Shown here: one piece after another, positions 12,028 through 50,852 of the stretch | Layout: each line of letters starts with the position of its first letter | Position numbering within the stretch: position 1 is the stretch's first letter | Source: Octopus vulgaris | Lineage: Eukaryota | NCBI GenBank assembly: GCA_951406725.2 | Contig: OX597842.1 | Location: 25,668,001-25,732,000 of the forward strand | Direction of reading: 5' to 3' | Length of the DNA stretch: 64,000 bases | Translations under genes and position numbers: made by a program | The notes under the pieces: model-generated | Database searches by the model: none | What the model saw: the letters and a program-made list of their open reading frames with translations, nothing else | What the model was told of the DNA's origin: nothing

Positions 12028-13306
12028 CACTTTGCCATTGTGGTGTTGTTTGAACTTCTTGTAGTCGTCTCTGAAACATCGGTTTCCCCTATTGGAAAAC
12101 AATTCTTAGCATTTGCTTCCTTGATGGAACCAGTCCTGCTGCCCCTTTTGGATTTTGGAGAATGCATGGATATTCCATTGATCAATTTCTTGTCCCTTTG
12201 TTTCATCAGGCCATGTTTATATATATAGAAAGGAAATTTGGACCTAGAAATCAACTTTTCTGCTTCTGTTTTCCTTCATTATGTGAGAATGTGCTACCCA
12301 TCATAACTGTGATCAGATAATGTGGGCCTTCGTGCTAACTATGCCAATGTGGTGTTGTTTGAACTTCTTGTAGTCGTCTCTGAAACGTTGGTTTCCCCTA
12401 TTGGAAAACAATTTTTAGCATTTGCTTCCTTGATGGAACCAGTCCTGCTGCCCCTTTTGGATTTCGGAGAATGCATGGATATTCCATTGATCAATTTGTT
12501 GTCCCTTTGTTTCATCAGGCCATGTTTATATATATAGAAAGGAAATTTGGACCTAGAAATCAACTTTTCTGCTTCTGTTTTCCTTCATTATGTGAGAATG
12601 TGCTACCCATCATAACTGTGATCAGATAATGTGGGCCTTTGTGCTAACTTTGCCATTGTGGTGTTGTTTGAACTTCTTGTAGTCGTCTCTGAAACGTCAG
12701 TTTCCCCAATTGGAAAACAATTTTTAGCATTTGCTTCCTTGATGGAACCAGTCCCGCTGCCTCTTTTGCATTTTGGAGAATGCATGGATATTCCATTGAT
12801 CAATTTGTTGTCCCTTTGTTTGATCGGGCCATGTTTTTATATATAGAAAGGAAATTTGGACCAAGAAATCAACTTATCTGCTTCTGTTTTCCTTCATTAT
12901 GTGAGAATGTGCTACCCATCATAACTGTGATCAGATAATGTGGGCCTTTGTTCTAACTTTGCCAATGTGGTGTTGTTTGAACTTCTTGTAGTCGTCTCTG
13001 AAACGTCGGTTTCCCCTATTGGAAAACAATTTTTAGCATTTGCTTCCTTGATGGAACCAGTCCCGCTGCCTCTTTTGCATTTTGGAGAATGCATGGATAT
13101 TCCATTGATCAATTTGTTGTCCCTTTGTTTCATAGGGCCATGTTTATATATATAGAAAGGAAATTTGGACGTAGAAATCAACTTTTCTGCTTCTATTTTC
13201 CTTCATTATATGAGAATGTGCTACCCATCATAACTGAGATCAGATAATGTGGGCCTTTCTGCTAACTTTGCCATTGTGGTGTTGTTTGAACTTCTTGTAG
13301 TTGTAT
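12028..13306. repeat. 309-bp tandem repeat, ~4 copies
   Basis: Equivalent positions at 12254, 12563 and 13181 are spaced by multiples of 309. Confidence 0.93.
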
Positions 13307-13580
13307 CTTCTTGTGTTCAGGAAACGTGGGCCTTTCTGCTAACTTTCCCAAAGTGTCTCAGGTGGTGTAGTTTGAATATCTGTTTTGGTTTCTGGAACAT
13401 CTGATTCCGTAATTACAAAATGGTTTATACCATTTCCTTGATGTCCTAGAAATCATGGAGTACCCAGCTTCCATTTGAAACATCTGATATGGATACGATC
13501 CATATAAATTTGACTAAAGTATTGACAACTTTTCAGTGGGTTCATTTTTCTGAATGCCATCAGGAACCATTTATATGGAA

Positions 13581-14823: not shown

Positions 14824-15022
14824 TCAGGAACCGTTTATATGGAATTTGCAGAGAATCTGAGCTTTGTCAGTCTCTATCGTTATATTTGTTCATTTCATTC
14901 TTTGCAATTTGGAGCTTTTGGTTGAGTTTTGGTTTGACTCCATTTCGTTTTGGTGGCTTCCATTACAGCCATTGCTGGTTTAATTGCCATTTTCAAAGAT
15001 GCTAATAAGGTAACGAGTGTTT

Positions 15023-16680
15023 GCACACTACCTGTGCCAATGGGGCTCAGGTGGTGTAGTTTGAAATTCTGTAGTGACTTCTGATTCATCAGAATCTAAT
15101 TTAGGGAACTATCTTTGGGAGACTACAGCCCTTTATTCTCTGGGTGTCCTGCCTTGCACAAGTTACAAGGGAATGAAGCCTGCACACTGACTGTGCCAAT
15201 GTGGCTCAGGTGGTGTAGTTTGAAATTCTGTAGTGACTTCTGATTCATCAGAATCTAATTTAGGGAACTATCTTTGGGAGACTACAGCCCTTTATTCTCT
15301 GGGTGTCCTGCCTTGCACAAGTTACAAGGGAATGAAGCCTGCACACTGACTGTGCCAATGTGGCTCAGGTGGTGTAGTTTGAAATTCTGTAGTGACTTCT
15401 GATTCATCATAATCTAATTTAGGGAACTATCTTTGAGAGACTACAGCCCTTTATTCTCTGGGTGTCCTGCCCTACACAACAGCTAAAAGGGAATGAAGCC
15501 CGCACACTGACTGTGCCAATGTGGCTCAGGTGGGGTAGTTTGAAATTCTGTAGTGACTTCTGATTCATCAGAATCTAATTTAGGGAACTATCTTTGGGAG
15601 ACTACAGCCCTTTATTCTCTGGGTGTCCTGCCCTACACAACAGCTAAAAGGGAATGAAGCCCGCACACTGACTGTGCCAATGTGGCTCAGGTGGGGTAGT
15701 TTGAAATTCTGTAGTGACTTCTGATTCATCAAAATCTAATTTAGGGAACTATCTTTGAGAGACTACAGCCCTTTATTCTCTGGGTGTCCTGCCCTACACA
15801 ACAGCTAAAAGGGAATGAAGCCCGCACACTGACTGTGCCAATGTGGCTCAGGTGGGGTAGTTTGAAATTCTGTAGTGACTTCTGATTCATCAGAATCTAA
15901 TTTAGGGAACTATCTTTGGGAGACTACAGCCCTTTATTCTCTGGGTGTCCTGCCCTGTCCTACACAACAGTTACAAGGGAATGAAGCCTGCACACTGACT
16001 GTGCCAATGTGCCTCAGGTGGGGTAGTTTGAAATTCTGTAGTGACTTCTGATTCATCAAAATCTAATTTAGGGAACTATCTTTGGGAGACCACAGCCCTT
16101 TATTCTCTGGGTGTCCTGCCCTACACAACAGGTACAAGGGAATGAAGCCTGCATTCTGACTGTGCCAATGGGGCTCAGGTGGTGTAGTTTGAAATTCTGT
16201 AGGTACTTCTGATTCATCAGAATCTAATTTAGGGAACTATCTTTGGGAGACTACAGCCCTTTATTCTCTGGGTGTACTTCCCTACACAACAGGTACAAGG
16301 GAATGAAGCCTGCACTCTGACTGTGCCAATGTGGCTCAGGTGGTGTAGTTTGAAATTCTGTAGTAACTTCTGATTCATCAAAATCTAATTTAGGGAACTA
16401 TCTTTGGGAGACTACAGCCCTTTATTCTCTGGGTGTCCTTCCCTACACAACAGGTACAAGGGAATGAAGCCTGCACTCTGACTGTGCCAATGTGGCTCAG
16501 GTGGTGTAGTTTGAAATTCTGTAGTAACTTCTGATTCATCAAAATCTAATTTAGGGAACTATCTTTGGGAGACTACAGCCCTTTATTCTCTGGGTGTCCT
16601 GCCCTACACAACAGTTACAAGGGAATGAAGCCTGCACACTGACTGTGCCAATGTGGCTCAGGTGGTGTAGTTTGAAATTC
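15023..16680. repeat. ~160-bp satellite, 10 full units plus a partial
   Basis: Unit starts at 15023, 15182, 15341, 15502, 15663, 15824, 15990, 16151, 16312, 16473 and 16634. Confidence 0.96.
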
Positions 16681-16976
16681 AGCACAAGTGTTCAGGTAAT
16701 GTGGGCCTTTGTGCTAACTTTGCCCTTGTGGTGTTGTTTGAACTTCCTGTAGTTGTCTCTGGATCGTCTGTTTCCCCTATTGCAAAATAATTTTTAGCAT
16801 TTGCATTCTTAATGGAAGCAGCGCTGCTGCCTCGTTTATATTTTGTAGAATGCATGGATTTTCCATTGACCAATTTGTTGTCCCTTTGTTTCATAGGGAC
16901 ATGTGTATTTAAAAAGGAAATTTGGACATAGAAATCTACTTTTCTGCTTCTGTTTTCCTTTATCATGTGAGGATGT

Positions 16977-19243
16977 GCTATATTGAAGAGGATCAGCGAG
17001 AGCGCGTCCCCCTGTCTAACACCTCGACGAATCTCAATGGGTTCACTAACTTGCCCACTGACTGAGAATCTGGTAGTACTGCCTTCATAGATCCCCTCCA
17101 CAAGCGCTATAACGTGCTCGTGGAACCCAAGTCTCCGCAGTCCTGCATACCCCAACGTGTGCAAGACTGTATTGAAGGCCTTCGAGAGATCCAAAAATGC
17201 AACCTCCAGCCGCGGTATTCTCAGTCGGGCTTGCCTCCCCATCGTGTGACTGACGAGCTGCCAAAGGAGAAACACGAGTTCTCACTGCAGCCGTCAGCGT
17301 GGATAAAGCCTCTTTGGCTTGGATTCAGGGGAGTTACCTGAAGCATGCGCTTGGCGACCATTTTAGAGAATAAACGATACACTGCAGAACATATCGTGAT
17401 TGGTCGCCAATTTGCAAGATCGTATGGGTCGTCTGCCCTCTTTGATACGAGGACAGACCTACCCCGCTTCAGGATATCGGGTACTTTACCCGCCAGCAAC
17501 ATGCAGTTGCATATATTTGCTAGGACAGCTGGGTCCATTGATTTGATTTCACTAACAGTGATACCATCCGGACCCGCCGCTGAGGAGATCTTCATCCTAC
17601 GTCTATTGATCTTAACCTCTTCCACGGAGAACGGACTCAAGATGGAGCCGCTCTCAACCTGGGAGGAGGAGGGGTAGTTCTTCAGATCAACCTCAGGGCC
17701 TGGAGCAGAAAGCCTCCCTCTATAGAATTCCTCTATAGCATAAAGTGGGATAGGGCATTCCTGCTCCCTGTCCTCGCCTAACACAACTGCAAGGAGCCTC
17801 TTCCTATCTTTCTTGAATAAGTCCTGGTGGCGGGCGTACGCATGTTGCCTACCCCGCCGCCTAAAATTGGTGTTCTTGCTAGGATTCCTAACTCTACTAT
17901 TCCTGGTAGTCTCTTCCCTACACGATCCGTAGTGCTCCACCCAGTCCTCTACTCTTCTCTCAAAAGAGCCCCAGGCAGCCGAGGTCCCGTCTTCTACGAG
18001 TTCCAATAGGGCCTCGGAGAAGACTGCAGACCAACGGGTATGCCCGGGACATGCAGCATCGAGGAAGGATCCCTCCAGTCAAAATTAGACTGGGGTCCTC
18101 CCCTGATTTGTGGTTGGGAATTGGTCACGGACTGCTCTGACCCTTGATGACTCTTACGAGCCCTTTCGGCCAGGTCAGCCCTTTTCGATCCTACCTGTTT
18201 GGCTGTTTTGCCCGGTAGGAACCGTGCAATGGCTGCATTGATCTGCTTTACCCCTGTCTTTTTCAGCTCACTCCTTTTCAACGAGGACCGCTACTTCCTC
18301 GTCAGACTAACAGCCCCTGTGTCTTTGGCCTGTTGCCTCAGCAGCGGCTGCCCGATCGGCACGTTTTTTCGCAATTTGCTCTAAGCGAGCAGCAATCCTG
18401 CGCAGCACATTTGACATAAGCATCCTGTAGTGGCAAATGCCCGATCGACCTACGGCCGTCAAAAAAGAATGGCTGCAGTGGTCACAATCAAAGGAGACTA
18501 GAGCCGGACTAGGGGCAGGCGCTCTAAATGCACTACCATCGCACCGACCTGCGGACACCTCATAGAGTGGAGGTGCCCGCTTTCCCTATCACATTTACTG
18601 CATTTGTATACAGGCTTAATGCCATGTCTACATATTACGTGCTCCCACCAAACATTGGGGGAGGAGAAGCGCAGAGGACATAGTGGACTGGCTATGGAGC
18701 ATGACGCGCAGGGAATTGTAAGTGAGAATTCACTCCCAACTGGAGTGGGGCTTGATACCCCCACTACCTCCTCTCGATCCATTTCTAACTTAAGAGAATG
18801 AATGGGGAGGTCCCTAGCGACCCTATCTCGGTCCGTCTCTAAATCAGAAGACCGGACTTCATCGATGGGGTCATGTGCTAGGTCTAGTGGGAATTGTTCT
18901 CCTCTCACTATCAGGGAATGTTCTTTGTATTCTAGTCTAAATATGTTTACTCTATTTCTATAATACTTCAGTGTCGGACGCAAATTTAAGCGCCCGACAC
19001 TGGTCCTGTCGATGCCTATTGAGCCACTTGGACTTACTTGCGCCGGAGATGACTCGTCCCGTGCAAGGGAGGGTAGTCCTTCGGCTGACCGCATTTGGTT
19101 AATGCCGTCAGCCTGACGTGTGGGCCCCATCCCGGACCCACAGGCCACCAGTTTAACGGCACCTGGCTGCCGTATGTTTCTAAACTTATTAGTGAGCATC
19201 ACTATTCTTAGCGACATTTTACTAAGGATCCTAGCCGAAACGA
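16977..19243 (-). mobile_element. R2 copy 4: divergent lineage, 5'-truncated and 3'-truncated
   Basis: ORFs 18498-19256, 17994-18281, 17221-18006 and 16679-17275. Peptide differs conservatively from the other copies. Confidence 0.95.
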
Positions 19244-19300
19244 TTAAGAGAGTCATAGTTACTCCTGCCGTTTACCCACGCTTGGTTGAATTTCTTCACT

Positions 19301-19332
<32 letters not shown>

Positions 19333-19432
19333 CACGTCTGTGCGGCTTGGCCGGCTACACGATGCTCTGTTTTAATTACTGTCAGATTCCCCTGGTCCGT
19401 ACCAGTTCCGAGTCGACCGTTCACCGCCGGCC
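19244..19432 (-). rRNA. 28S rRNA fragment ending ...ATGACTCTCTTAA
   Basis: Plus strand ttaagagagtcatagttactc... is 28S up to 2 nt before the R2 bottom-strand nick. Confidence 0.95.
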
Positions 19433-19792
19433 TAACGCCTGCCTGTCTACGCTGTCAAATGCTTTTTCAAAGTCAACAAAGCACACACATAGTGTCGTTT
19501 GCCATTCCATTGTCTGCTCCACGATGACTCTGAGTGTCACAATCTTATCCGTGCATGATCTCTCCTTTCCGAGACCTGCCTGATCATCTCTGAGTGACTT
19601 GTCAATGGTATCTTTCAATTGCTCCAGGATGATTCTTGTAAGGACTTTGCTTGGAATGGAAAGCAAGGTAATTCCTCTCCATTTCCACTTTGTGATAAAA
19701 TCCCCACTCTTCGGCAGCTTCACCGAAAGAACCTTCTTCCAGTCGTTTGGGATCTTCTCTGTCCTCCGTACCAAGTTCAGCACATGGAGCAT
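19433..19792 (-). mobile_element. RTE-like RT fragment
   Basis: ORF 19421-19852. Confidence 0.88.
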
Positions 19793-21329
19793 GTAATTGT
19801 TTTGAATGTTGGTATTCACAAGAGAAATTCTTTGCCTGCGTGCTTCACCCATTTTCCAATCTCTCGTTTTATACTGTTGGAATTTTCATGCTGCTGTCTA
19901 AATATAAATACAAATTTGACTGTGCAGAACTACCTTTGTGTGTCTGCTGCCCTCCATTCTCAGATATGCCCTACTCAGTGCAAGAATAAGGTAGTGAGGG
20001 CCTGCATATTGTCTGTGCCAATGTGGTTCTTATTGTGTATTTAAATCTGTCATGAATTCTGATTTGTCAGATATTTCTTAAGCAACACAGCTTGTACAAT
20101 TCCTAATATTCTCTCCATCAATGGGTACCCTGCATCTAATCTAGATGGATTTAAACCAATAAAACATGGCACAGCTGGAGCAGATTGATGAATCAGAAGT
20201 TACTACAGAAGTTCAGATTGTACACTGGCACTACGGGTTGTACAATTCCTCCTCGTTTCAGTACATTTCCTCTTTTGGTATTGCAGGTTTTCTGTTCTGA
20301 ATTCTTCTATTGAGCATATCGGATCTTTACTAAGGGAGAGAGAAACAAGTGAAGCAGAAAGTTGGTTCTGTTCTGACGATTTTCATTAGAGCCATTGCAG
20401 TAGTCCATCATGTTTTTTGGATGGTGATTCAGATATTTGCTTTCTTGATGGAAACAGTCCAGTTGCTTCCTTTCAGTTTTGGAGAATACATGGGGTCTTC
20501 TTTGACCAATTTGTTGTCCCTTTGTTTCATATTGCAATTTGTATAAAAAAGGAAATTTGGACATAGAAATCTACTTTTCTGCTACTGTTTTCCTTCTTTA
20601 TATGAGAATGTGCTACCCATCATAACTGTGATCAGATAATGTGGGCCTTTGTGCTAACTTTGCCATTGTGGTGTTGTTTGAACTTCTTGTAGTTGTCTCC
20701 GTATCGTCTGATTCCCCTATTGTAAAACAATTTTTAGCATTTGCTTTCTTGATGGAAACAGTTCTGCTGCCTCTTATGGATTTTGGAGAATGCATGGATT
20801 TTCCATTGACCAATTTTTTGTCCCTTTGTTTCATCGGGCCATGTTTATATATATAGAAAGGAAATTTGGACCTAGAAATCAACTTTTCTGCTTCTGTTTT
20901 CCTTCATTATATGAGAATATGCTTCCCATCATATCAGTGATCAGATAATGTGGGCCTTTGTGCTAACTTTGCTTTTGTGGTGTTGTTTGAACTTCTTGTA
21001 GTTGTCTCCGTATCATCTGATTCCCTTTTTGCAAAATAATTTTTTTGCATTTGCTATCTTGATCGAAATAGTCCTGCTGCCTCTTTTGGATTTTGGAGAA
21101 TGCATGTTTCAGATACGTCTATTTCCAATATTGTAAAGCAGTTTTTAGCATTTGCTTTCATAATTGAAGCAGTCCTGCTGCCTTTTTTTACATTTTATAG
21201 AAAACTTGGATTTTCCATTGAGCAATTTGTTGTCCCTTTGTTTCATAGGGCCATGTGTATATAGAAAGGAATTTCTGGACATAGAAATCTGCTTTGCAGC
21301 CTCTATTTTCCTTTATCATGTGAGAATGT

Positions 21330-23603
21330 GCTATATTGAAGAGGATCAGTGAAAGCGTGTCCCCCTGTCTAACACCTCGACGAATCTCTATGCGTTCACT
21401 AACTTGCCCACCAACTGAGAATCTGGTAGTACTGCCTTCATAGATCCCCTCTACAAGCGCTATAACATGCTCGTGGAACCTAAGTCTCCGCAGTCCCGCT
21501 TACATAAGAGAGTGCGAGACTGTATCGAAGGCCTTCGAGAGATCCAAAAAGGCAACCTCCAGCCGCATTATTCTCAGCTGTGCTGGCCTCCCCATCGTGC
21601 GACTGATGAGCTGCTGAAGGAGAACCGAGTTGTCACTGCAGCCGTCAGCGCGGATAAAGCCTCTTTGGCTTGGATTAAGAGGAGTTACCTGAAGCATGCG
21701 CTTGGCAACCATTTTTGAAAATAAACGATAAACCGCAGAGCATATTGTAATTGGTCACCATTTTGCAAGATCGTATGGGTCGTCCGATCTCTTGGGTATG
21801 AGAATCGACTTCCCCCTCTTCAGGATCTCGGGTACTTTACCCGCCAGCAACATGCAGTTGCATATATTAGTTAGAACAGCTGGGTCCATCGCTTTAATTT
21901 CACCTATAGTGATACCGTCTGGACCCGCCGCTGAGGAGATCTTCATCTGACGTCTACTTACCTTAATCTCCCCCACGGAGAACGGACTCAACATGGAGTC
22001 GTTCTCAACCTGGGAGGAGGAGGGGTAGTTCTTCAGATCTACCTCAGGGCCTGGAGCGGAAAGCCTGCCCTTATAAAATTCCTCTATTGAATAGATTGGA
22101 ATAGGGCATTCCCGCTCCCTGTTTTCACCTAACACAACTGCAAGGAGCTTCTTCCTATTCTTTCTAAATAAATCTTGATGTCGGGCATAAGCTTGACGCT
22201 TATCCCGATGCCTAGGCTTAATGTTACTCTTGTTCGGTGTGTTCCTATCGCTAGCTAAATTTCTCCTGTTGTTGGTAACTACCCTACGCGATTTATAATG
22301 CTCCACCCAGTCCTCTATAGTTTTCTCAAATGAGCCCCAAGCAATCGCTGTCCCGTCTTCCACGAGTTCCAAAAGGGCCTCGGAGAGGACTGCAGACCAG
22401 CGGGTATGCCCGGGGCATGCAGAATCGAGGAAGGGGTACCTCCAGTCAAAACTAGACTGGGGTTCTCCCCCGATTTGTGATTGGGAGTTGGTCGTGGACT
22501 GTTCTGTCCCTTGATGACTCTTGCGAGCCCTTTTGGCCAGATCAGCCCTTTTCGATCCCACCTGTTTGGCTGTTTTGCCCGCTAGGAATTGTGCAATGGC
22601 AGCATTGATCTGCTTTACCCCTGTCTTCTTCAGCTCAGACTCCTTTTCAACGAGGACCGCTACTTCCTCTTCGGACCAACAGCCCCTGCGTCTTTGGCCA
22701 AAAGCCTCAGCAGCGGCTGGCCGATCGGCACATTTCTTTGTAATTTCTTCAAGGCGAGCAGCAATCCTGCGGGCATTCGCCTCAACAGGATGCTTATACT
22801 GCGATCGACCTACAGCCGTCAAAAAGAACGGCTGCAGTGGTCACAATCAAAGGAGGCTAGAGCCGGACTAGGGGCAGGTGCTCTAAATGCACTGCCATCA
22901 CATCTACCAGCGTGACACCTCAAAGAATGGAGGTGACCGCTTTCCCTATCACATTTGATGCATCTGTAGACAGGTCTAATACCATGTCTACAGATAACAT
23001 GCTACCCCCATGAATGGGGGGAGGAGAAGTGCAGAGGACATAGCGGGCAGGCTATGGAGCAAGACGCACAGGGAATTGCAAGTGAGAATTCTCTACCACC
23101 TGGAGTGGGGCTTGATACCCCCACTACCTCCTCTCGATCCATTTCTAAATTAAGAGAATGAATGGGGAGGTCCCTAGCATCACCCTCTCTGTCCGTCTCT
23201 AACGAAAACCGGACTTCATCGATGGGGTCATGTGCTAGGTCCAGTGGGAGTTGTTCTCCTCTCACTATCAGGGAATGTTCTTTGTATTCTAGTCTAAATA
23301 TGTTTACTCTATTTCTGTAATACTTCAGTGTCGGACGCAAAGTTAAGCGCCCGACACTGGTCCTGTCGATGCCTATTGAGCCACTTGGACTTACTTGCAC
23401 CGGAGATGACTCGTTGTCCCGTGCAAGGGAGGGTAGTCCTTCGGCCGACCGCATTTGGTTAATGCCGTCAGCCTGACGTGTGGGCCCCATACCGGACTCA
23501 CAGGCCACCAGTTTAACGGCACCTGGCTGCCGTATGTTTCTAAACTTATTAGTTAGCATCACTATTCCTAGCGGCATTTTACTAGGGATCCTAGCCGAAA
23601 CGA
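21330..23603 (-). mobile_element. R2 copy 5: 5'- and 3'-truncated
   Basis: ORFs 23002-23616, 21755-22822 and 21500-21712. Confidence 0.95.
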
Positions 23604-23638
<35 letters not shown>

Positions 23639-23660
23639 TGCTTGGTTGAATTTCTTCACT

Positions 23661-23692
<32 letters not shown>

Positions 23693-23792
23693 CGCGTCTG
23701 TGCAGCTTGGCCGGCTACGCGATGCTCTGTTTTAATTACTGTCGGATTCCCCTGGTCCGTACCAGTTCCGAGTTGACCGTTCACCGCCGGCC
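23604..23792 (-). rRNA. 28S rRNA fragment
   Basis: Near-identical to 19244-19432 at an offset of 4360. Confidence 0.95.
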
Positions 23793-24152
23793 TAACGCCT
23801 GCCTGTCTACGCTGTCAAATGCTTTTTCAAAGTCAACAAAGCACACACATAGTGATGTTTGCCATTCCATTGTCTGCTCCACGATGACTCTGAGTGTCAC
23901 AATCTTATCCGTGCATGATCTCTCCTTTCCGAGACCTGCCTGATCATCTCTGAGTGACTTGTCAATGGTATCTTTCAATTGCTCCAGGATGATTCTTGTA
24001 AGGACTTTGCTTGGAATGGAAAGCAAGGTAATTCCTCTCCATTTCCACTTTGTGATAAAATCCCTACTCTTCGGCAGCTTCACCGAAAGAACCTTCTTCC
24101 AGTCGTTTGGGATCTTCTCTGTCCTCCGTACCAAGTTCAGCACATGGAGCAT
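23793..24152 (-). mobile_element. RTE-like RT fragment
   Basis: ORF 23781-24212. Confidence 0.88.
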
Positions 24153-25689: not shown

Positions 25690-27966
25690 GATATATTGAA
25701 GAGGATCAGTGAAAGCGTGTCCCCCTGCCTAACACCTCGACGAATCTCTATGCGTTCACTAACTTGCCCACCAACTGAGAATCTGGTAGTACTGCCTTCA
25801 TAGATCCCCTCTACAAGTGCTATAACATGCTCGTGGAACCTAAGTCTCCGCAGTCCCGCTTACATAAGAGAGTGCGAGACTGTATCGAAGGCCTTCGCGA
25901 GATCCAAAAAGGCAACCTCCAGCCGCATTATTCTCAGCTGTGCTTGCCTCCCCATCGTGCGACTGATGAGCTGCTGAAGGAGAACCGAGTTGTCACTGCA
26001 GCCGTCAGCGCGGATAAAGCCTCTTTGGCTTGGATTAAGAGGAGTTACCTGAAGCATGCGCTTGGCGACCATCTTAGAAAATAAACGATAAACCGCAGAG
26101 CATATTGTAATTGGTCACCATTTTGCAAGATCGTATGGGTCGTCCGATCTCTTGGGTATGAGAATCGACTTCCCCCGCTTCAGGATCTCGGGTACTTTAC
26201 CCGCCAGCAACATGCAGTTGCATATATTAGTTAGAACAGCTGGGTCCATCGCTTTAATTTCACCTATAGTGATACCGTCTGGACCCGCCGCTGAGGAGAT
26301 CTTCATCTGACGTCTACTTACCTTAATCTCCCCCACGGAGAATGGACTCAAGATGGAGTCGTTCTCAACCTGGGAGGAGGAGGGGTAGTTCTTCAGATCT
26401 ACCTCAGGGCCTGGAGCGGAAAGCCTGCCCTTATAAAATTCCTCTATTGAATAGATTGGAATAGGGCATTCCCGCTCCCTGTTTTCACCTAACACAACTG
26501 CAAGGAGCTTCTTCCTATTCTTTCTAAATAAATCTTGATGTCGGGCATAAGCTTGACGCTTATCCCGATGCCTAGGCTTAATGTTACTCTTGTTCGGTGT
26601 GTTCCTATCGCTAGCTAAATTTCTCCTGTTGTTGGTAACTACCCTACGCGATTTATAATGCTCCACCCAGTCCTCTATAGTTTTCTCAAATGAGCCCCAA
26701 GCAATCGCTGTCCCGTCTTCCACGAGTTCCAAAAGGGCCTCGGAGAGGACTGCAGACCAGCGGGTATGCCCGGGGCATGCAGAATCGAGGAAGGGGTACC
26801 TCCAGTCAAAACTAGACTGGGGTTCTCCCCCGATTTGTGATTGGGAGTTGGTCGTGGACTGTTCTGTCCCTTGATGACTCTTGCGAGCCCTTTTGGCCAG
26901 ATCAGCCCTTTTCGATCCCACCTGTTTGGCTGTTTTGCCCGCTAGGAATTGTGCAATGGCAGCATTGATCTGCTTTACCCCTGTCTTCTTCAGCTCAGAC
27001 TCCTTTTCAACGAGGACCGCTACTTCCTCTTCGGACCAACAGCCCCTGCATCTTTGGCCAAAAGCCTCAGCAGCGGCTGGCCGATCGGCACATTTCTTTG
27101 TAATTTCTTCAAGGCGAGCAGCAATCCTGCGGGCATTCGCCTCAACAGGATGCTTATGCTGCGATCGACCTACAGCCGTCAAAAAAGAACGGCTGCAGTG
27201 GTCACAATCAAAGGAGGCTAGAGCCGGACTAGGGGCAGGTGCTCTAAATGCACTGCCATCACATCTACCAGCGTGACACCTCAAAGAATGGAGGTGACCG
27301 CTTTCCCTATCACATTTGATGCATCTGTAGACAGGTCTAATACCATGTCTACAGATAACATGCTACCCCCATGAATGGGGGGAGGAGAAGTGCAGAGGAC
27401 ATAGCGGGCAGGCTATGGAGCAAGACGCACAGGGAATTGCAAGTGAGAATTCTCTACCACCTGGAGTGGGGCTTGATACCCCCACTACCTCCTCTCGATC
27501 CATTTCTAAATTAAGAGAATGAATGGGGAGGTCCCTAGCATCACCCTCTCTGTCCGTCTCTAACGAAAACCGGACTTCATCGATGGGGTCATGTGCTAGG
27601 TCCAGTGGGAGTTGTTCTCCTCTCACTATCAGGGAATGTTCTTTGTATTCTAGTCTAAATATGTTTACTCTATTTCTGTAATACTTCAGTGTCGGACGCA
27701 AAGTTAAGCGCCCGACACTGGTCCTGTCGATGCCTATTGAGCCACTTGGACTTACTTGCACCGGAGATGACTCGTTGTCCCGTGCAAGGGAGGGTAGTCC
27801 TTCGGCCGACTGCATTTGGTTAATGCCGTCAGCCTGACGTGTGGGCCCCATCCCGGACTCACAGGCCACCAGTTTGGCGGCGCCTGGCTGCCGTATGTTT
27901 CTGAACTTAATAGTTAGCATCACTATTCCTAGCGGCATTTTACTAGGGATCCTAGCCGAAACGATA
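25690..27966 (-). mobile_element. R2 copy 6, near-identical to copy 5
   Basis: ORFs 27363-27938, 26115-27284 and 25860-26072. Confidence 0.95.
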
Positions 27967-28150
27967 AAGAGTCATAGTTACTCCCGCCGTTTACCCACGC
28001 TTGGTTGAATTTCTTCACTTTGACATTCAGAGCACAGGGCAGAAATCACATCGCGTCTGTGCGGCTTGGCCGGCTACGCGATGCTCTGTTTTAATTACTG
28101 TCGGATTCCCCCGGTCCGAACCAGTTCCGAATCGACCATTCACAGCAGGC
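27967..28150 (-). rRNA. 28S rRNA fragment
   Basis: Same variant as 4901-5086 (tccgaaccagttccgaatcgaccattcacagcaggc). Confidence 0.94.
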
Positions 28151-28511
28151 TGAACGCCTGCCTGTCTACGCTGTCAAATGCTTTTTCAAAGTCAACAAAG
28201 CACACACATAGTGGCCTTTGCCATTCCATTGTCTGCTCCACGATGACTCTGAGTGTCACAATCTTATCCGTGCATGATCTCTCCTTTCCGAGACCTGCCT
28301 GATCATCTCTGAGTGACTTGTCAATGGTATCTTTCAATTGCTCCAGGATGATTCTTGTAAGGACTTTGCTTGGAATGGAAAGCAAGGTAATTCCTCTCCA
28401 TTTTCACTTTGTGATAAAATCCCCACTCTTCGGCAGCTTCACCGAAAGAACCTTCTTCCAGTCGTTTGGGATCTTCTCTGTCCTCCGTACCAAGTTCAGC
28501 ACATGGAGCAT
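28151..28511 (-). mobile_element. RTE-like RT fragment
   Basis: ORF 28140-28385. Confidence 0.87.
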
Positions 28512-30179
28512 GTAATTCGTTTTGAATGTTGGTATTCACAAGAGAAATACTTTCCCTGCGTGCTTCAACCATTTTCCAATCTCTCTTGTTTTATACTGTT
28601 TTGTTTTGAAGTTTTTTCATTGCAACAATTGCTGCTTTCAAAGAGATTTCTTTGATACCAATTCTGACATTGGTATCTGGATTTTTGTTATCAATATTTT
28701 TGCACTCAAATTGTTTCTGAAGATCAGAAAGGATCTTATTTGACCAGTTCATCTCTTCATTTCATGCTGCTGTCTAAATATAAATACAAATTTGACTGTG
28801 CAGAACTACCTTTGTGTGTCTGCTGCCCTCCATTCTCACATATGTCCTACTCAGTGCAACAATAAGGTAGTGAGGGCCTGCATATTGTCTGTGCCAATGT
28901 GGTTCTCATTGTGTATTTAAATCTGTTGTGAATTCTGATTTGTCAGATATTTCTTAAGCAACACAGCTTGTACAATTCCCAATATTCTTTCCATCAATGG
29001 GTACCCTGCATCTAACCCAGATGGATTTAAACCAATAAAACATGGCACAGCTGGAGCAGATTGATGAATCAGAAGTTACTACAGAAGTTTAAATTTCACA
29101 TTTGCGACACCAGTTGTACAATTCCTCCTTGTTTCAGTACATTTCCTCTTTTGGTATTGCAGTTTTTCTGTTCTGAATTCTTCTATTGAGCATATCGGAT
29201 CTTTACTAAGAGAGAGAGAAACTTGTGAAGCAGAAAGTTGGTTCTGTTCTGACGATTTTCATTAGAGCCATTGCAGTAGTCCATCCTGTTTTTTGGATGG
29301 TGATTCAGATATTTGCTTTCTTGATGGAAACAGTCCAGTTGCTTCCTTTCAGTTTTGGAGAATACATGGGGTCTTCTTTGACCAATTTGTTGTCCCTTTG
29401 TTTCATATTGCAATTTGTATAAAGAAAGGAAATTTGGACATAGAAATCTACTTTTCTGCTTCTGTTGCCCTACATTATGTGAGAATGAGCTACTCAGCAC
29501 AACAGTGTTCATGTAATGAGGGCCTTTCTGCTAACTTTGTCATTGTGGTGTAGTTAGAATTTTTGTTGTGGTTTCAGATATATGGAATTCCACTTCTGCA
29601 AATAAATGTTTAGCATTTGCTTCCTTGATGGAACCAGTCCTGCTGCCCCTTTTGGATTTTGGAGAATGCATGGATATTCCATTGATCAATTTGTTGTCCC
29701 TTTGTTTCATCGGGCCATGTTTATATATATACAAAGGAAATTTGGACGTAGAAATCAACTTTTCTGCTTCTGTTTTCCTTCATTATGTGAGATTGTGCTA
29801 CCCATCATAACTGTGATCAGATAATGTGGGCCGTTGTGCTAAATTTGCCATTGTGGTGTTGTTTGAACTTCTTGTAGTCGTCTCTGAAATGTCGGTTTCC
29901 CCTATTGGAAAACAATTTTTAGCATTTGCTTCCTGGATGGAACCAGTCCTGCTTCCTCTTTTGGATTTTGGAGAATGCATGTTTCAGATACGTCTATTTC
30001 CACTATTGTAAAGCAGTTTTTAGCATTTGCTTTCATAATTGAAGCAGTCCTGCTGCCTTTTTTTACATTTTGTAGAATACATGGATTTTCCATTGAGCAA
30101 TTTTTTGTCACTTTGTTTCATAGGGCCATGTGTATATAGAAAGTTGCTGCCTCTATTTTCCTTTATCATGTGAGAATGT

Positions 30180-33100
30180 GCTATATTGAAGAGGATCAGT
30201 GAAAGCGTGTCCCCCTGTCTAACACCTCGACGTATCTCTATGGGTTCACTAAGTTGCCCACCGACTGTGAATCTGGTAGTACTGCCTTCATAGATCCCCT
30301 CTACAAGCGCTATAACGTGCTCATGGAACCCAAGTCTCTGCAGTCCAGCAAACCCCAACGAGTGCAAGACTGTATCGAAGGCCTTCGAGAGATCCAAGAA
30401 GGCAACCTCCAGCCACGGTATTCTCAGCCGTGCTGGCCTCCCCATAGCACGACTAACGAGCTGCTGAAGGAGAAATGAATTCTCACTGCAGCCGTCAGCG
30501 TGGATAAAGCCTCTCTGGCTTGGATTAAGAGGAGTTACCTGAAGCATGCGTTTGGCGACCATTTTAGAGAATAAACGATACACCGCAGAACATATCGTAA
30601 TTGGTCGCCAGTTCGCAAGATCGTAGGGGTCGTTTGATCTCTTTGATACGAGGACAGACCTAACTCGCTTCAGGATATCGGGTACTTTACCTGCCAGCAA
30701 CATGCAGTTGCATATATTTGCTAGGACAGCTGGGTCCATTGCTTTGATTTCACCTATAGTGATGCCATCTGGACCCTCCGCTGAAGAGATCTTCATTTGT
30801 TTTCTACTCACCTTAATCTCCTCCATGGAGAACGGACTCAAGATGGAGTCGTTCTCAACCTGGGAGGAGGAGGGGTAGTTCTTCAGATCTACCTTAGGGC
30901 CTGGAGCGGAAAGCCTGCCCTTATAAAATTCCTCTTTTGAATAGATTGGAATAGGGCATTCCTGCTCCCTGTTTTCACCTAACACAACTGCAAGGAGCAT
31001 CTTCCTATTTTTTCTAAATAGATCCTGATGACTGGCATAAGCTTGACGCTTATCCCGTCGCCTAAGTCTAGTGTTACTCTTATTTTGGTTATTCCTATCA
31101 CTAACTAAATTTCTCCTGTTGTTGGTAACTACCCTGCGCGATTTATAATGCTCCACCCAGTCCTCTATAGTTTTCTCAAATGAGCCCCAAGCAATCGCTG
31201 TCCCGTCTTCCATGAGTTCCAAAAGGGCCTCGGAGAAGACTGCAGACCAGTGGGTATGCCCGGGGCATGCAGAATCGAGGAAGGATCCCTCCAGTCAGAA
31301 CTAGACTGGGGTTCTCCCCAGATCAGCCCTTTTCGATCCCACCTGCTTGGCTGTTTTGCCTGGTAGGAACCGTGCAATGGCTGCATTTATCTGCTTTACC
31401 CCCGTCTTCTTCAGCTCTGACTCCTTTTCAACGAGGACCGCTACTTCCTCGTCGGACCAACAGCCCCTGCGTCTTTGGCCTATTGCCTCAGCAGCGGCTG
31501 CCCGATTGGCACTTTTCTTTGCAATTTGCTCTAAGCGAGCAGCAATCCTGCGGGCATTCGCCACTACAGGATGCTTATGCCGAACGTGCTGCGATCGACT
31601 TATAGCCATCAAAAAAGAATGGCTACAGTGGTCACAATCAAAGGAGGCTAGAGCTGGACTGGGGGCAGGTGCTCTAAATGCACTGCCATCACATCTACCA
31701 GCGTGACCCCTCAAAGAATGGAGGTGACCACTTTCCCTATCACATTTGATGCATCTGTAGACAGGTCTAATACCATGTCTACAGATAACATGCTACCCCC
31801 ATGAATGGGGGGAGGAGAAGTGCAGAGGACATAGCGGGCAGGCTATGGAGCATGACGCGCAGGGAATTGTAAGTGAGAATTCTCTACCACCTGGAGTGGG
31901 GCTTGATACCCCCACTACCTCCTCTCGATCCATTTCTAAATTAAGAGAATGAATGGGGAGGTCCCTAGCAACCCCATCTTTGTCTGTCTCTAACGAAAAC
32001 CGGACTTCATCGATGGGGTCATGTGCTAGGTCGAGTGGGAGTTGTTCTCCTCTCACTATCAGGGAATTTTCTTTGTATTCTAATCTAAATATGTTTGCTC
32101 TATTTCTGTAATACTTCAGTGTCGGACGCAAAGTTAAGCGCCCGACACTGGTCCTGTCGATGCCTATTGAGCCACTTGGACTTACTTGCACCGGAGATGA
32201 CTCGTTGTCCCGTGCAAGGGAGGGTAGTCCTTCGGCCGACCGCATTTGGTTAATGCCGTCAGCCTGACGTGTGGGCCCCATCCCGGACCCACAGGCCACC
32301 AGTTTAACGGCGCCTGGCTGCCGTGTGTTCCTAAACTTATTAGTTAGCATCACTATTCTTAGCGGCATTTTACTAGGGATCCTAACTGAAACGATAAAGT
32401 TGAACTTAAAGGAGGTGCAATGCCAACCCCCAAAAGAAAGGCAAACTTAACCACTAACCTAGCCTCAAAATCCTAACGGCCGCCCACCCGAGTACGGAGA
32501 CAGACAACAAGCAGCCCACCCACCCCCGAGAACTATTACCCCCAGAAAGCACCTGGGGGACTTGTCTAGGCTAACCGGGACCGTGAGTGTATCCACCCCA
32601 GACCTGGAGCGGTGAACAAGAACGAGACACCCTATGATAAGTCCTACGATAGATCCTATTACGGAAACCTCAACCGGCGAGTGAGGCGATAAAACACACT
32701 CAAGGCAAATATAGAAGATACGGCTAAATTCTACCCGTCACAACCACCGGCTAGACCATTAATATCAAAAGGGCGCCCATCCCTATGATAATCGCCCCAT
32801 AATGGAGGCAAGAGAAAGGTCCTTCACTCTACACTGTTACAAGACAACTGCCCGACTGTAATAGCTGGACAGTCCCCCATCTACAGCCCGTGAAGGGCTC
32901 TATTCCTTAACGCCGCAGCTGGGTACCTAACTCACAGGCCCCTCCACACCAGCTCAGGAAAAACCGGCGATCCACACCGATGAACCAACCGGAAACCCCG
33001 GCCACTATACGCCTAAGACTACAATTTATTGGCTCTAAAATAAAGCCATGACCTTTACTTTCTTGTCCCCGAAGGGAGAACCGCCCACTATCCGACTCAC

Positions 33101-33630
33101 ACAAACAGTAGCGCTCACCGGGTCACTAAAGACCAAAAGGATTCTAAGGGTTCAGCCAGCAGCCGCTCAACCTAACCAGTAGGGAGGCATGCACCCCCTA
33201 TCAGAATCGCCCAAAATCCACTAGCTCCCCACCAAAATAAATTGGAACCGCTTTGGAGAAAGAAGGACACGTTTAGTTTGTCCGATACGGGGTTTTTATC
33301 CGGCATTGTGTAAAGCATATCCAGCATCGACCCCGCATGGACGTAAGCTCTCTAACCACGCCAAGGTAGTGTCCAAAAGGGTGAAGCCTGGCAGTGCATC
33401 CACCTGGCAGTGCATCCACCTGCCGAGTAAAAAAACAGTGAGCAAAGCCCACTGAATCCTGACAGGTCATAACATACTAGGTCATAACATACTAGGTCAT
33501 AACATACTAGGTCATAACATACTAGGTCATAACATACCAGGTCATAACATACCAGGTCATAACATACCAGGCCTACCTGTTAATGCATCCACCTCAAAAG
33601 AGGTCATAAGAAACAGGCCCCACAAGAGCC
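30180..33630 (-). mobile_element. R2 copy 7: full 5' UTR, 3'-truncated, paralog of copy 3
   Basis: ORFs 31793-32368, 31301-31714 and 30020-31222. Confidence 0.95.
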
Positions 33631-33662
<32 letters not shown>

Positions 33663-33776
33663 GTTGAATTTCTTCACTTTGACATTCAGAGCACAGGGCT
33701 ACGCGATGCTCTGTTTTAATTACTGTCGGATTCCCCCGGTCTGTACCAGTTTCGAGTCGACTGTTCACCGCCGGCA
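33631..33776 (-). rRNA. 28S rRNA fragment with internal deletion
   Basis: Same deletion variant as 10626-10771. Confidence 0.92.
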
Positions 33777-34136
33777 TAACGCCTGCCTGTCTATGCTATC
33801 AAATGCTTTTTCAAAGTCAACAAAGCACACACATAGTGGCCTTTGCCATTCCATTGTCTGCTCCACGATGACTCTGAGTGTCACAATCTTGTCCGTGCAT
33901 GATCTCTCTTTTCCGAGACCTGCCTGATCATCTCTGAGTGACTTGTCAATGGTATCTTTCAATTGCTCCAGGATGATTCTTGTAAGGACTTTGCTTGGAA
34001 TGGAAAGCAAGGTAATTCCTCTCCATTTCCACTTTGTGATAAAATCCCTACTCTTCGGCAGCTTCACTGAAAGAACCTTCTTCCAGTCGTTTGGGATCTT
34101 CTCTGTCCTCCGTACCAAGTTCAGCACATGGAGCAT
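33777..34136 (-). mobile_element. RTE-like RT fragment
   Basis: ORF 33765-34196. Confidence 0.88.
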
Positions 34137-35435
34137 GTAATGGTTTTGAATGTTGGTATTCACAAGAGAAATTCTTTGCCTGCGTGCTTCACCCATTTTC
34201 CAATCTCTCTTGTTTTATACTGTTTTGTTTTGAAGTTTTTCATTGCAACAATTGCTGCTTTCAAAGAAATTTCTTTGATACCAATTCTGACATTGGTATC
34301 TGGATTTTTGTTATCAATATTTTTGCACTCAAATTGTTTCTGAAGATCAGAAAGGATCTTCTTTGACCAGTTCATCTCTTCATTTCATGCTGCTGTCTAA
34401 ATATAAATACAAATTTGACTGTGCAGAACTACCTTTGTGTGTCTGCTGCCCTCCATTCTCAGATATGTCCTACTCAGTGCAACAATAAGGTAGTGAGGGC
34501 CTGCATATTGTCTGTGCCAATGTGGTTCTCATTGTGTATTTAAATCTGTTGTGAATTCTGATTTGTCAGATATTTCTTAAGCAACACAGCTTGTACAAAT
34601 CCCAATATTCTCTCCATCAATGGGTACCCTGCGTCTAACCCAGATGGATTTAAACCAATAAAACATGGCACAGCTGGAGCAGATTGATGAATCAGAAGTT
34701 ACTACAGAAGTTTAAATTTCACTTTTGCAACACCAGTTGTACAATTCCTCCTCGTTTCAGTACATTTCCTCTTTTGGTATTGCAGTTTTTCTGTTCTGAA
34801 TTCTTCTATTGAGCATATCGAATCTTTACTAAGGGAGAGAAAAACATGTGAAGCAGAAAGTTGGTTCTGTTCTGACGATTTTCCTTAGAGCCATTGCAGT
34901 AGTCCATGCTGTTTTTTGGATGGTGATTCAGATATTTGATAGAACAGGTCCAGTTGCTTCCTTTCGTTTTGGAGAATACATGGGGTCTTCTTTGACCAAT
35001 TTGTTGTCCCTTTGTTTCATTGTGCAATCCGTGTATAGAAAGTAAATTTAGACATAGAAATCTACTTTTCTGCTTCTGTTGCCCTACATTATGTGAGAAT
35101 GTGCTACTCAGCACAACAGTGTTCAGGTAATGAGGGCCTTTCTGCTAACTTTGTCATTGTGGTGTAGTTAGAATTTTTGTTGTGGTTTCAGATATATGGA
35201 ATTCCACTTCTGGAAAAAAATGTTTAGCATTTGCTTCCTTGATAGAACCAGTCCTGCTGCCTGTTTTGGATTTTGGAGAAATCATGGATATTCCATTGAC
35301 CAATTTGTTGTCCCTTTGTTTCATCGGGCTATATTTACATTTATATGTCCAAATTTCCTTTCTATATATAGTTTGCAGCCTCTGTTTTCCTTCATTATAT
35401 GAGAATGTGCTACCCAACAATATCGTGATCAGATA

Positions 35436-37464
35436 ATGTGGGCCTTTGTGCTAACTTTGTCATTGTAGTCTGGTTAGAATTTCTGTTGTTTCTGGAACAT
35501 TTGATTCCCCTATTGCAAAACAGTTTTTACCATTTCCTTCATGTCGTAGAAATCAAGGAGTGTCCAGCATTAAAAATTCAAGGAATGAGATGCAGAAAAG
35601 CCACAGTCAGTCCATTGTATTTCATAGCATCCTCAGAAAATCCCTCCATTCTCAGATATGTCCTACTCGGTGCAAGAATAAGGTAGTGAGGGCCTGCATA
35701 TTGTCTGTGCCAATGTGGTTCTTATTGTGTATTTACATCTGTTGTGACTTCTGATTGGCCAGATATTACTTTAGCAACACAGATTGTACAACTCCCAATA
35801 TTCTGTGAATCAATGGGTACCCAGCATCGATGAGACGTACCCTAGATGGATTTAAACCAATAAAACATGGCACAGCTGGAGCAGATTGATGAATCAGAAG
35901 TTACTACAGAAGTTCAGATTGTACACTGGCACTACAGGTTGTACAATTCCTCCTTGTTTCAGTACATTTCCTCTTTTGGTATTGCAGTTTTTCTGTTCTG
36001 AATTCTTCTATTGAGTATATCGGATCTTTACTAAGAGAGAGAGAAACTTGTGAAGCAGAAAGTTGGTTCTGTTCTGATGATTTTCATTAGAGCCATTGCA
36101 GTAGTCCATCCTGTTTTTTGGATGGTGATTCAGATATTTGCTTTCTTGATGGAAACAGTCCAGTTGCTTCCTTTCAGTTTTGGAGAATACATGGGGTCTT
36201 CTTTGACCAATTTGTTGTCCCTTTGTTTCATATTGCAATTTGTATAAAGAAAGGAAATTTGGACATAGAAATCTACTTTTCTGCTTCTGTTGCCCAACAT
36301 TATGGGAGAATGTGCTACCCATCACAACAGTGTTCAGGTAATGTGGGCCTTTGTGCTGACTTTGTCATTGTAGTTTGGTTAGAATTTCTGTTGTTTCTGG
36401 TACATTTGATTCCACTATTGCAAAACAGTTTTTACCATTTCCTTCATGTCGTAGAAATCAAGGAGTGTCCAGCATTAAAAATTCAAGGAATGAGATGCAG
36501 AAAAGCCACAGTCAGTCCATTGTATTTCATAGCGTCCTCAGAAAATCCCTCCATTCTCAGATATGTCCTACTCGGTGCAAGAATAAGGTAGTGAGGGCCT
36601 GCACCTTGTCTGTGCCAATGTGGTTCTTATTGTGTATTTACATCTGTTGTGACTTCTGATTGGCCAGATATTACTTTAGCAACACAGATTGTACAACTCC
36701 TAATATTCTGTGAATCAATGGGTACCCAGCATCGATGAGACATACCCTAGATGGATATAAACCCATAAAACATGGCACAGCTGGAGCAGATTGATGAATC
36801 AGAAGTTACTACAGAAGTTTAAATTTCACTTTTGCGACACCAGTTGTACAATTCCTCCTCGTTTCAGTACATTTCCTCTTTTGGTATTGCAGTTTTGCTG
36901 TTCTGAATTCTTCTATTGAGCATATCGAATCTTTACTAAGAGAGGGAAAAACATGTGAAGCAGAAAGTTGGTTCTGTTCTGACGTTTTTCCTTAGAGCCA
37001 TTGCAGTAGTCCATGCTGTTTTGTGGATGGTGATTCAGATATTTGCTTTCTTGATGGAAACAGTCCAGTTGCTTCCTTTCAGTTTTGGAGAATACATGGG
37101 GTCTTCTTTGACCAATTTGTTGTCCCTTTGTTTCATATTGCAATTTGTATAAAGAAAGGAAATTTGGACATAGAAATCTACTTTTCTGCTTCCGTTGACC
37201 AACATTATGGGAGAATGTGCTACCCATCACAATAGTGTTAAGGTAATGTGGGCCTTTGTGCTGACTTTGTCATTGTAGTTTGGTTAGAATTTCTGTTTCT
37301 GGAACATTTGATTCCACTATTGCAAAACAGTTTTTACCATTTCCTTCATGTCGTAGAAATCAAGGAGTGTCCAGCATTAAAAATTCAAGGAATGAGATGC
37401 AGAAAAGCCACAGTCAGTCCATTGTATTTCATAGCATCCTCAGAAAATCCCTCCATTCTCAGAT
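35436..37464. repeat. ~905-bp tandem duplication of spacer sequence (~2.2 copies, no R2)
   Basis: Equivalent ORF ends at 36008 and 36913. The gtagaaatcaaggagtgtccagc block occurs at ~35546, 36451 and 37353. Confidence 0.85.
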
Positions 37465-37655
37465 ATGCTTAGCGGTATATCGTCCGTCTTTACGTTCTGA
37501 GTTCAAATTCCGCCGAGGTTGACTTTGCCTTTCATCCTTTCGGGGTTGATTAAATAAGTACCAGTTAACCAGGGGTCGATATAATCGACTTAATCCGTTT
37601 GTCTGTCCTTGTTTGTCATCTCTGTGTTTAGCCCCTCGTGGGTGGTAAAGAAATA
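37465..37655 (+). mobile_element. tRNA-derived SINE, 5'-truncated
   Basis: gagttcaaattcc B box, then gactttgcctttcatcctttcgggg..taagtaccag core. Duplicate of 40271-40501. Confidence 0.85.
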
Positions 37656-50065: not shown

Positions 50066-50260
50066 CTGTATGTATGTATGCATGTGTATATATGTATGTA
50101 TGTATGTATATGTGTATGTATGTATATGTGTATGTATGTATATGTGTGTATGTATGTATATGTGTATATGTATGTATATGTGTATATGTATGTATGTATG
50201 TATAAATATATATATGTATGTATGTATATATATATATGTATGTATGTATATATGTATGTA

Positions 50261-50296
<36 letters not shown>

Positions 50297-50422: not shown

Positions 50423-50456
<34 letters not shown>

Positions 50457-50740: not shown

Positions 50741-50771
<31 letters not shown>

Positions 50772-50816: not shown

Positions 50817-50852
<36 letters not shown>

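Follow-up and report, generated by a model that had tools for sequence, protein, structure and literature searches.

A tandem array of R2 fragments outside the rDNA of Octopus vulgaris whose recombinant copies diverged under coding constraint

R2 copies usually turn over fast in rDNA, so that past subfamilies are seldom preserved. Seven R2 copies lie in tandem outside the rDNA in a 64,000-nucleotide stretch of the Octopus vulgaris genome (hereafter the window), and they raise the question of whether such copies simply decayed after duplication or descend from several R2 lineages that had diverged while still coding. The first-pass annotation, made from the sequence alone, had proposed the latter and supposed that active R2 subfamilies were written into a fixed cassette frame, which kept the array updated.

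The window from position 1 to ~35,500 is a tandem array of ~4.4 kb units, arranged head-to-tail on one strand and including a higher-order duplication of 8.2 kb (3823-12024 and 26897-35020, 96%). On the minus strand, each unit runs from a LINE RT fragment through ~200 nt of 28S rDNA ending at the R2 target site to the 5' half of an R2 and then to 309-bp repeats and spacer; the R2, 28S and LINE pieces all share this strand. The R2 half contains three zinc fingers, a Myb motif, and the RT as far as the QGDxLS motif, and the best protein matches of the window are Octopus vulgaris gene models with 77-80% local identity. The locus is a TE-derived satellite or tandem array, with head-to-tail units homogenised by unequal exchange and a divergent copy at the edge. 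This most divergent copy, copy 4, sits at the edge of its own sub-array and carries one stop, four frameshifts and one micro-inversion. The copies and the parts of the copy 4 unit are as follows:

49-3444, minus strand: copy 1, with the long type of 5' end, a predicted ribozyme at 3136-3245 and a short 28S remnant
3445-4898, minus strand: copy 2, with the short type of 5' end; it ends after ~470 codons with a deletion into the next 28S piece
7139-10780, minus strand: copy 3, with the long type of 5' end, a predicted ribozyme at 10223-10332 and a 28S piece
16679-16976, no strand assigned: 309-bp-type unit fused to the copy 4 3' end, sister of the other junction-adjacent units and 11-14% from them
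16977-19243, minus strand: copy 4, an R2 5' half with the short 5' end; zinc fingers CCHH, CCHC and CCHH, Myb, linker, and RT to QGDxLS
17040-17163, minus strand: second swapped RT patch, codons 659-700, common to copies 3, 4 and 7; copies 1, 5 and 6 have a stop and G671R here
17425-17476, minus strand: swapped RT patch of the RSVLVSKR type, codons 555-572, partly common to copies 3, 4 and 7 and containing P566S
17851-17922, minus strand: hypervariable linker island, codons 402-430, just ahead of the conserved YARHQDLF stretch
18401-18443, no strand assigned: micro-inversion of 43 nt, private to copy 4
19244-19443, minus strand: ~200 nt of 28S rDNA joined directly to copy 4 and ending at the R2 target site, with limits set by eye against the rDNA flanks printed in Table S2 of PMC13188248
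19444-19885, minus strand: LINE RT fragment (APE-type) fused to the 28S piece of copy 4, RVT_1 E=7e-11
19884-21329, no strand assigned: stretch separating copy 4 from copy 5, made up of 309-bp repeat units and spacer that does not code
21330-23803, minus strand: copy 5, with the short type of 5' end and a 28S piece
25690-28163, minus strand: copy 6, with the short type of 5' end and a 28S piece; a single unbroken frame with three stops
30180-33785, minus strand: copy 7, with the long type of 5' end, a predicted ribozyme at 33265-33374 and a 28S piece

Runs of the 309-bp repeat that contain no R2 occur at 12029-13308 and 34936-37467, with sub-types up to ~30% apart, and a 161-bp satellite (15022-16680, 10.3 copies, 96%), weakly similar to the array spacer and the 309-bp repeat, borders the copy 4 3' flank. 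Read as a 103-codon coding unit, the 309-bp repeat has stops in all six frames. The LINE fragment at 19444-19885 is presumably RTE-like. Further along the window are five AACCCT telomere-type repeats (56857-56886) and long TA-rich microsatellites (49923-52558 and 61600-64000) that yield spurious long ORFs.

The array copies derive from R2 lineage A. Both types of 5' junction end at the canonical 28S target (Rfam LSU matches), and zinc fingers of the CCHH, CCHC and CCHH types together with a Myb motif were read in the translations, three zinc fingers plus Myb being the definition of lineage A in the accessible text of PMC5035012. The Pfam match to a zinc finger is weak (E=0.0096), and the Myb motif (PF00249) is a precomputed annotation of the O. 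vulgaris protein P0001. The RT is nearest to R2 proteins (RVT_1 E=1e-15 to 1e-16, with named R2 proteins among the top matches), and homology to the octopod R2s of PMC13188248 is visible by eye in its Table S2. The copies are nevertheless R2 fragments, not elements: the YADD motif of the RT, the restriction-like endonuclease, the 3' UTR and the downstream 28S of an autonomous R2 are all lacking, and all seven copies carry stops or frameshifts. Copy 6 has no frameshift across 720 codons. Some of the 1-nt indels sit in homopolymers and could be sequencing errors, unlike the stops and the larger lesions. The similarity to full-length R2 proteins ends at the 309-bp junction, so the main truncation lies at the 3' end, inside the RT, with loss of the catalytic YADD and the endonuclease; the cut that the first-pass annotation had placed at the 5' end is not the main one. 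An R2 SIDE, which combines a 5' ribozyme with an R2 3' UTR and is inserted in 28S according to the part of PMC3414825 that defines it, does not fit either, since no copy has an R2 3' end or downstream 28S.

The copies diverged under coding constraint. In copy 4, the peptides PIPLYAIEEFYRGRL and DLFKKDRKRLL stand in place of PIPIYSIEEFYKGRL and DLFRKNRKKLL elsewhere, with minor variants in copies 1, 3 and 7, and all the peptides on which the first-pass annotation had built its case were found as quoted. Rates were computed with NG86 over 720 codons, with the copy 6 frame as guide and the copy 4 inversion at 18401-18443 excluded from every count. Copy 4 differs from the six others with dS of 0.25-0.29 and dN of 0.075-0.087, giving an omega of 0.27-0.33; among all 21 copy pairs, omega ranges from 0.22 to 0.68. 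In the copy 4 pairs, the 0-fold divergence is 0.074-0.081 versus a 4-fold divergence of 0.168-0.189 (Fisher P 1.5e-5 to 9e-8 in four of the four pairs tested), and the constraint persists when only transversions at 0-fold and 4-fold sites are compared (P 9.5e-4 to 2.4e-6) and when CpG sites are removed (P = 0.011, 0.020 and 1.1e-4 in three of three pairs). The changes private to copy 4 comprise 66 silent against 74 replacement or stop changes, with a neutral silent fraction of 0.23-0.28 (P=1.2e-6), and its two indels in the linker island keep the frame. The private changes of copies 1 and 3 look neutral (5 silent to 18 replacement), but pooled over copies 1, 3, 5, 6 and 7 they are still silent-biased (18:24, P=0.028). 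Windows with an NG86 dS of 0.8-0.95 rest on ~30 silent sites, and there the 4-fold excess over the flank is marginal (P=0.047-0.18). The avoidance test of constrained changes against conserved columns gave P=0.058, 0.13 and 0.24, and stop-codon dating, with 4.2 stops expected at a distance of 0.06, gave P(<=1)=0.07 and P(<=3)=0.37. We infer that the constraint was probably inherited from the working life of the donors and does not reflect a present function.

The copies are also recombinant. The PHI statistic is 0.132, versus 0.200 +/- 0.012 in 10,000 permutations (P=1e-4, 138 informative sites), with the same P for six and for five copies, and all six triplet run tests gave P<0.04, three of them at 1e-4. 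The mosaic structure that had been proposed is thereby confirmed, as is the exchange of patches that had been quoted for it: RSVLVSKR occurs in copies 3, 4 and 7 and KSILIPKR in copies 1, 5 and 6, copy 2 ending ahead of the region. In copies 3, 4 and 7, P566S in the RSVLVSKR patch and S659L in the second patch each introduce a residue found in 0 of 44 outside R2 proteins, and stop 664 and G671R are common to copies 1, 5 and 6. Because the swapped patches are damaged at conserved RT residues, the visible swaps were probably made between dead copies. Other lesions are distributed similarly, with stop 163 common to copies 3, 5, 6 and 7 and a 68-nt deletion common to copies 1, 2, 3 and 7. These shared stops, the deletion and the damaged patches indicate that lesions were amplified and exchanged and that selection does not at present maintain the frame of any copy in the window. 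An apparent patch of copy 4 at 18401-18443 was rejected as a donor tract, as it is the micro-inversion. The first 100 codons differ by 2-4% among copies and the 5' flanks by 1-8%, as expected if the edge copy 4 had been evened out from inside the array. Copies 1 and 2 (1171-2316 and 3806-4468, minus strand) appear in public databases as the protein-coding genes P0306 and P0160, both of which stop at the frameshift of the 68-nt deletion.

Between the Myb motif and the RT, the linker island differs by 15-22% between copies that are 1-2% apart on both sides. It differs among nearly all copies and contains no stops, and its silent sites are affected too. In windows chosen after inspection of the data, the island shows 13 differences in 87 nt between copies 3 and 7, versus 3 in 297 on the sides (P=6e-7), and 14 in 87 versus 4 in 291 between copies 1 and 2. 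Copy 4 differs from the others at 23-26 of 66 nt (0.35-0.39), approximately three times the flank divergence. The segment after the island is one that we take to be the RT N-terminal extension. Further linker variants are found in the proteins P0001, P0121 and P0305; the linker of copy 7 resembles that of P0305, and the linker of copy 2 resembles a piece of P0001. The island is a candidate for diversifying selection or for ancient alleles resistant to conversion.

The R2 family of the array is annotated on four other Octopus vulgaris sequences (84, 119, 128 and 182 Mb). At 39 diagnostic columns, which leave out eight columns in or beside the copy 4 inversion and one past the P0305 splice, P0305 (~430 open R2 codons) has the copy 4 residue in 11, the majority residue in 24 and another residue in 4. 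In the tree of columns 430-555, the majority copies are joined by the P0001 piece with a support of 81 and by P0305 with a support of 68, and copy 4 falls outside. The outside R2 copies thus lie between copy 4 and the other array copies in the RT-start tree, with moderate supports; a second tree, with distant outgroups only, gave no sensible rooting. P0001, P0121 and P0305 may themselves be copies of the array cassette. The gene models of P0001 (CAI9736399.1) and P0121 (CAI9736398.1) lie next to each other in O. vulgaris, and their splicing joins several R2 pieces that belong to the array family. The P0001 locus may contain an inverted copy, as residues 25-59 of P0001 correspond to the other strand of the R2 5' region.

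There are two types of 5' junction. In copies 2, 4, 5 and 6, the 28S target is joined straight to the ORF start region, and in copies 1, 3 and 7 there is an extra ~1.1-1.3 kb. The ends that copy 4 was said to hold in common with the others are therefore common only in part: it shares its 5' truncation point with copies 2, 5 and 6 but not with the longer copies 1, 3 and 7, and its 3' junction to the 309-bp repeat occurs in six of the seven copies, copy 2 being without it. The long 5' ends carry a predicted HDV-like R2 ribozyme, a pattern of P2, P3, L3, P1' and J4/2 over ~110 nt of the minus strand that is not present in copies 2, 4, 5 and 6. In copy 1, the P1' strand is fully paired to the 28S heptamer that precedes the target. 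None of 2000 shuffles reproduced this pairing, and 30 of 2000 gave any match to the pattern; the pairing agrees with the use of upstream 28S sequence by R2 ribozymes, as described in the available portion of PMC3774820. Rfam gave no detection of HDV-like ribozymes in copies 1, 3 and 7, and a loose version of the pattern found 6 further matches, 5 of them at one repeated RT site, that look like chance. The 5' layout of these three copies agrees by eye with the octopod R2 5' ends in Table S2 of PMC13188248. Their ribozymes are preceded by a duplicated target-like sequence and up to ~eight 15-nt tandem repeats. The stretch from ribozyme to ORF (~870 nt; 2270-3135, 9359-10222 and 32400-33264) is by eye longer than in the published octopod R2s and has no protein match. 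The long 5' segment was rejected as a second inserted element, as it contains the R2 ribozyme and has no protein match.

The short-type junction lies at most 2 nt from the target and has a microhomology of 3-4 nt, such as 5'-truncated R2 insertions show at their junctions in the accessible text of PMC2718515; this suggests that a second, independent rDNA junction entered the array by recombination. All 28S pieces share one derived deletion ~105 nt upstream, and the upstream part of these pieces therefore stems from a single capture. Given this shared deletion, and given that the end of copy 2 is a microhomology deletion within the array, a deletion inside the array is also a possible source of the short 5' junction. 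A hand count over the 200 nt of the 28S piece, against the published octopus rDNA flanks in PMC13188248 as far as these are printed, gives ~10 substitutions, 8 of which fall at CpG, plus one deletion. Since these changes are few relative to the 11-14% that separates the copy 4 3' flank from its sisters, the 28S piece seems to be of more recent origin than the 3' junction, which would already have been diverse when the 5' end departed from the rDNA.

The 309-bp junction within the RT has a microhomology of 4-5 nt. In a tree, the copy 4 3' flank clusters with the remaining 309-bp units next to junctions (support 0.983) at its distance of 11-14%. A divergence equal to that of the flanking non-R2 spacer had been named in the first-pass annotation as evidence that would speak against its proposal, and on this point the two sides of copy 4 disagree: its 4-fold divergence (0.17-0.19) does not significantly exceed that of the 3' flank (0.125-0.153; P=0.17, 0.29), but the 5' flanks, at 1-8%, lie far below it. 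The 0-fold divergence of copy 4 is below that of the 3' flank (P=0.049, 0.002), and silent differences extend to ~15 nt of the 3' junction. As the silent divergence is close to that of the 3' flank, a once-selected family of truncated R2 genes becomes possible.

R2 copies from elsewhere probably supplied some of the array sequence, as indicated by the outside R2 pieces that fall between copy 4 and the rest, the linker island, and the 28S piece that looks younger than the 3' junction. To this extent, the idea of subfamilies written into a cassette holds, but the visible swaps carry P566S, the stop and G671R and so probably did not come from active elements. Over the fingers and Myb within the first 400 aa, the published intact octopus R2s (R2-1_OVu and R2-1_OSi, sequences as given in PMC13188248) match the array majority at ~102 of 167 residues (~61%, hand count), and copy 4 matches the majority at 53 of 61 residues in fingers 1-2. 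The published R2s thus lack the near identity of the same family and are too distant to be the donor; with every copy broken as well, the supposed updating by active R2 finds no backing. Protein searches among longer proteins, near matches and 50% representatives gave no full-length member of the array R2 family, and shorter proteins gave 1 match at 57%. No intact protein of the array build was found among proteins of 666-2000 aa, a set in which annotation may mask one. A metagenome scan with P0305 returned a single weak locus (39% over 59 residues), and the ESM Atlas returned RT/R2 clusters under 0.8. The donors would be subfamilies of a second lineage-A family, perhaps extinct or not yet assembled.

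We consider it fairly probable that the locus is a tandem array of dead, 3'-truncated R2 pieces into which recombination brought sequence more than once from constrained R2 subfamilies, and that this sequence was afterwards exchanged between the dead copies. In such a history, an R2 5' half would have been fused inside the RT to a 309-bp repeat via the 4-5 nt microhomology and then amplified, and the 3' end of copy 4 would have stayed behind at the edge of the array as an old branch. Parts of the cassettes would later have been replaced by 28S-R2 5' ends out of the rDNA, one full-length with the ribozyme and one 5'-truncated, and by internal tracts from other members of the array R2 family. 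The stops, the 68-nt deletion and the damaged RT patches spread between copies, to judge from the shared lesions and the recombination signal, in directions that we infer, and the shuffling among dead copies would have proceeded by unequal crossover and gene conversion.

A former domesticated gene would explain part of the same evidence. The cassette (three zinc fingers, Myb, the RT start and a tail of ~25 codons from the 309-bp repeat) would then have been a multigene family under purifying selection that later died and that perhaps blocked R2 at the 28S target in a dominant-negative manner. The relation of copy 4 to its 3' flank at silent and 0-fold sites, the constraint that reaches up to the junction, the frames of copies 3, 4 and 7 that read on past it, and the unbroken 720 codons of copy 6 all fit a gene. 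We still regard it as unlikely, as neither an intact protein of the array build in the protein set nor an intact copy in the window was found, every one of the seven copies is disabled and lesions were amplified, the linker island exceeds the flank divergence roughly threefold, and a flow from the rDNA would be needed in any case to account for the second 5' junction and the young 28S piece. Distinctly unlikely is a host-kept archive or decoy against R2, refreshed by recombination, which might act as a candidate piRNA source or as a domesticated half-R2 that binds 28S without cutting and may have helped to extinguish the lineage; variant tracts, above all the hypervariable linker, would have been written into it from the evolving R2 population. 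More doubtful still is a host-maintained archive of R2 variants, for example a candidate piRNA source, into which the current R2 is still being written. The single strand of the R2, 28S and LINE pieces, the short foreign linker tracts within otherwise near-identical copies and the occurrence of piRNA clusters in molluscs (reported in the accessible part of PMC6128900) are in its favour, but the swapped patches carry damage, and the published rDNA R2 of O. vulgaris and O. sinensis is far more distant from the array majority than copy 4 is. No RNA run was among the 17 sequencing runs listed as holding copy 4 words.

It is very unlikely that assembly or polishing errors account for part of the patchwork, with reads of other R2 copies written into the array copies or evening them out. 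The islands are of about read length or shorter and some 1-nt indels lie in homopolymers, as such errors might, but the copies differ by 1-13% in nested, silent-biased sets, their flanks form a tree of their own, and polishing cannot produce a signal of coding constraint. Moreover, nine runs from six studies with four organism labels, one of which may be the source sample, hold 0.22-0.55 of the copy 4 words; the 8 of the 17 runs with shares of 0.20 or less were left out, and the rest of the window itself has 348 of the 2237 copy 4 31-mers. A single captured R2 piece that was duplicated and decayed neutrally, its pattern owed to chance and a CpG/transition bias, is extremely improbable. Several of the differences are CpG transitions and the signal weakens when CpG is removed, but the silent-rich private changes of copy 4, the significant transversion-only test and the in-frame linker indels reject this origin, in agreement with the first-pass annotation. 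We therefore retain the reading of dead R2 pieces with repeated import and shuffling.

On that reading, several past R2 subfamilies seem to be preserved side by side outside the rDNA, and the array is probably a record of how diverse an R2 lineage other than that of the published octopus element once was. Its R2 family is an octopod lineage-A family absent from the table of the 2026 survey (PMC13188248). The array provides a case in which the movement of sequence out of rDNA-resident elements into a different locus can be tested. The short hypervariable segment between Myb and the RT N-terminal extension has a genealogy much deeper than its neighbours and may be a site at which host and element are in conflict or at which template specificity is set. 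Should small RNAs or an intact truncated protein exist, the locus would represent a new form of host R2 control; otherwise, it is an informative fossil. In the open-access literature, we found no paper on this octopus array or on its combination of features. These features are the composite array outside the rDNA with its fixed 3' junction, several constrained R2 haplotypes, two 5' junctions and hypervariable linker; several R2 lineages in one genome are already known (PMC5035012 and PMC13188248, in the parts available).

Comparisons with known systems, drawn from the accessible parts of the cited papers, show which of these features recur elsewhere. The octopod lineage A R2s (R2-1_OVu, R2-1_OSi, R2-1_ORu and R2-1_ECi; Hassan et al. 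2026, PMC13188248), of which Table S2 lists one per octopod species and one each for six cephalopods, resemble the array in the three N-terminal zinc fingers, the Myb motif, the RT, the 28S junction and the layout of the 5' ribozyme core, with a strand pairing to the 28S heptamer before the target. In contrast to them, the array lacks the YADD motif, the endonuclease, the 3' UTR and the downstream 28S, and it is tandem and lies outside the rDNA. In the case of R2Br fun/deg of Bacillus rossius (Martoni et al. 2015, PMC4370867), two R2 variants ~9% apart likewise show gene-conversion tracts with disabling changes, but these are functional and degenerate forms inside the rDNA, whereas the octopus copies lie outside it, with a fixed non-R2 3' junction and with both sides once constrained. 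The R1-derived satellite of Drosophila melanogaster (McGurk and Barbash 2018, PMC5932611) is also a heterogeneous tandem array; it derives from a non-LTR element specific to rDNA and lies beyond the rDNA array itself. It consists of head-to-tail R1 with target duplications from double insertion, whereas the octopus unit, which comes in several constrained haplotypes, is a composite of LINE, 28S, half R2 and 309-bp repeats. In nascent R1/R2 subfamilies (Stage and Eickbush 2009, PMC2718515), as in the array, sublineages coexist in one species and 5'-truncated junctions show microhomology; recombination between those subfamilies is rare, at 1 of 115 informative clones, whereas in the octopus array the mixing is extensive and concerns dead copies.
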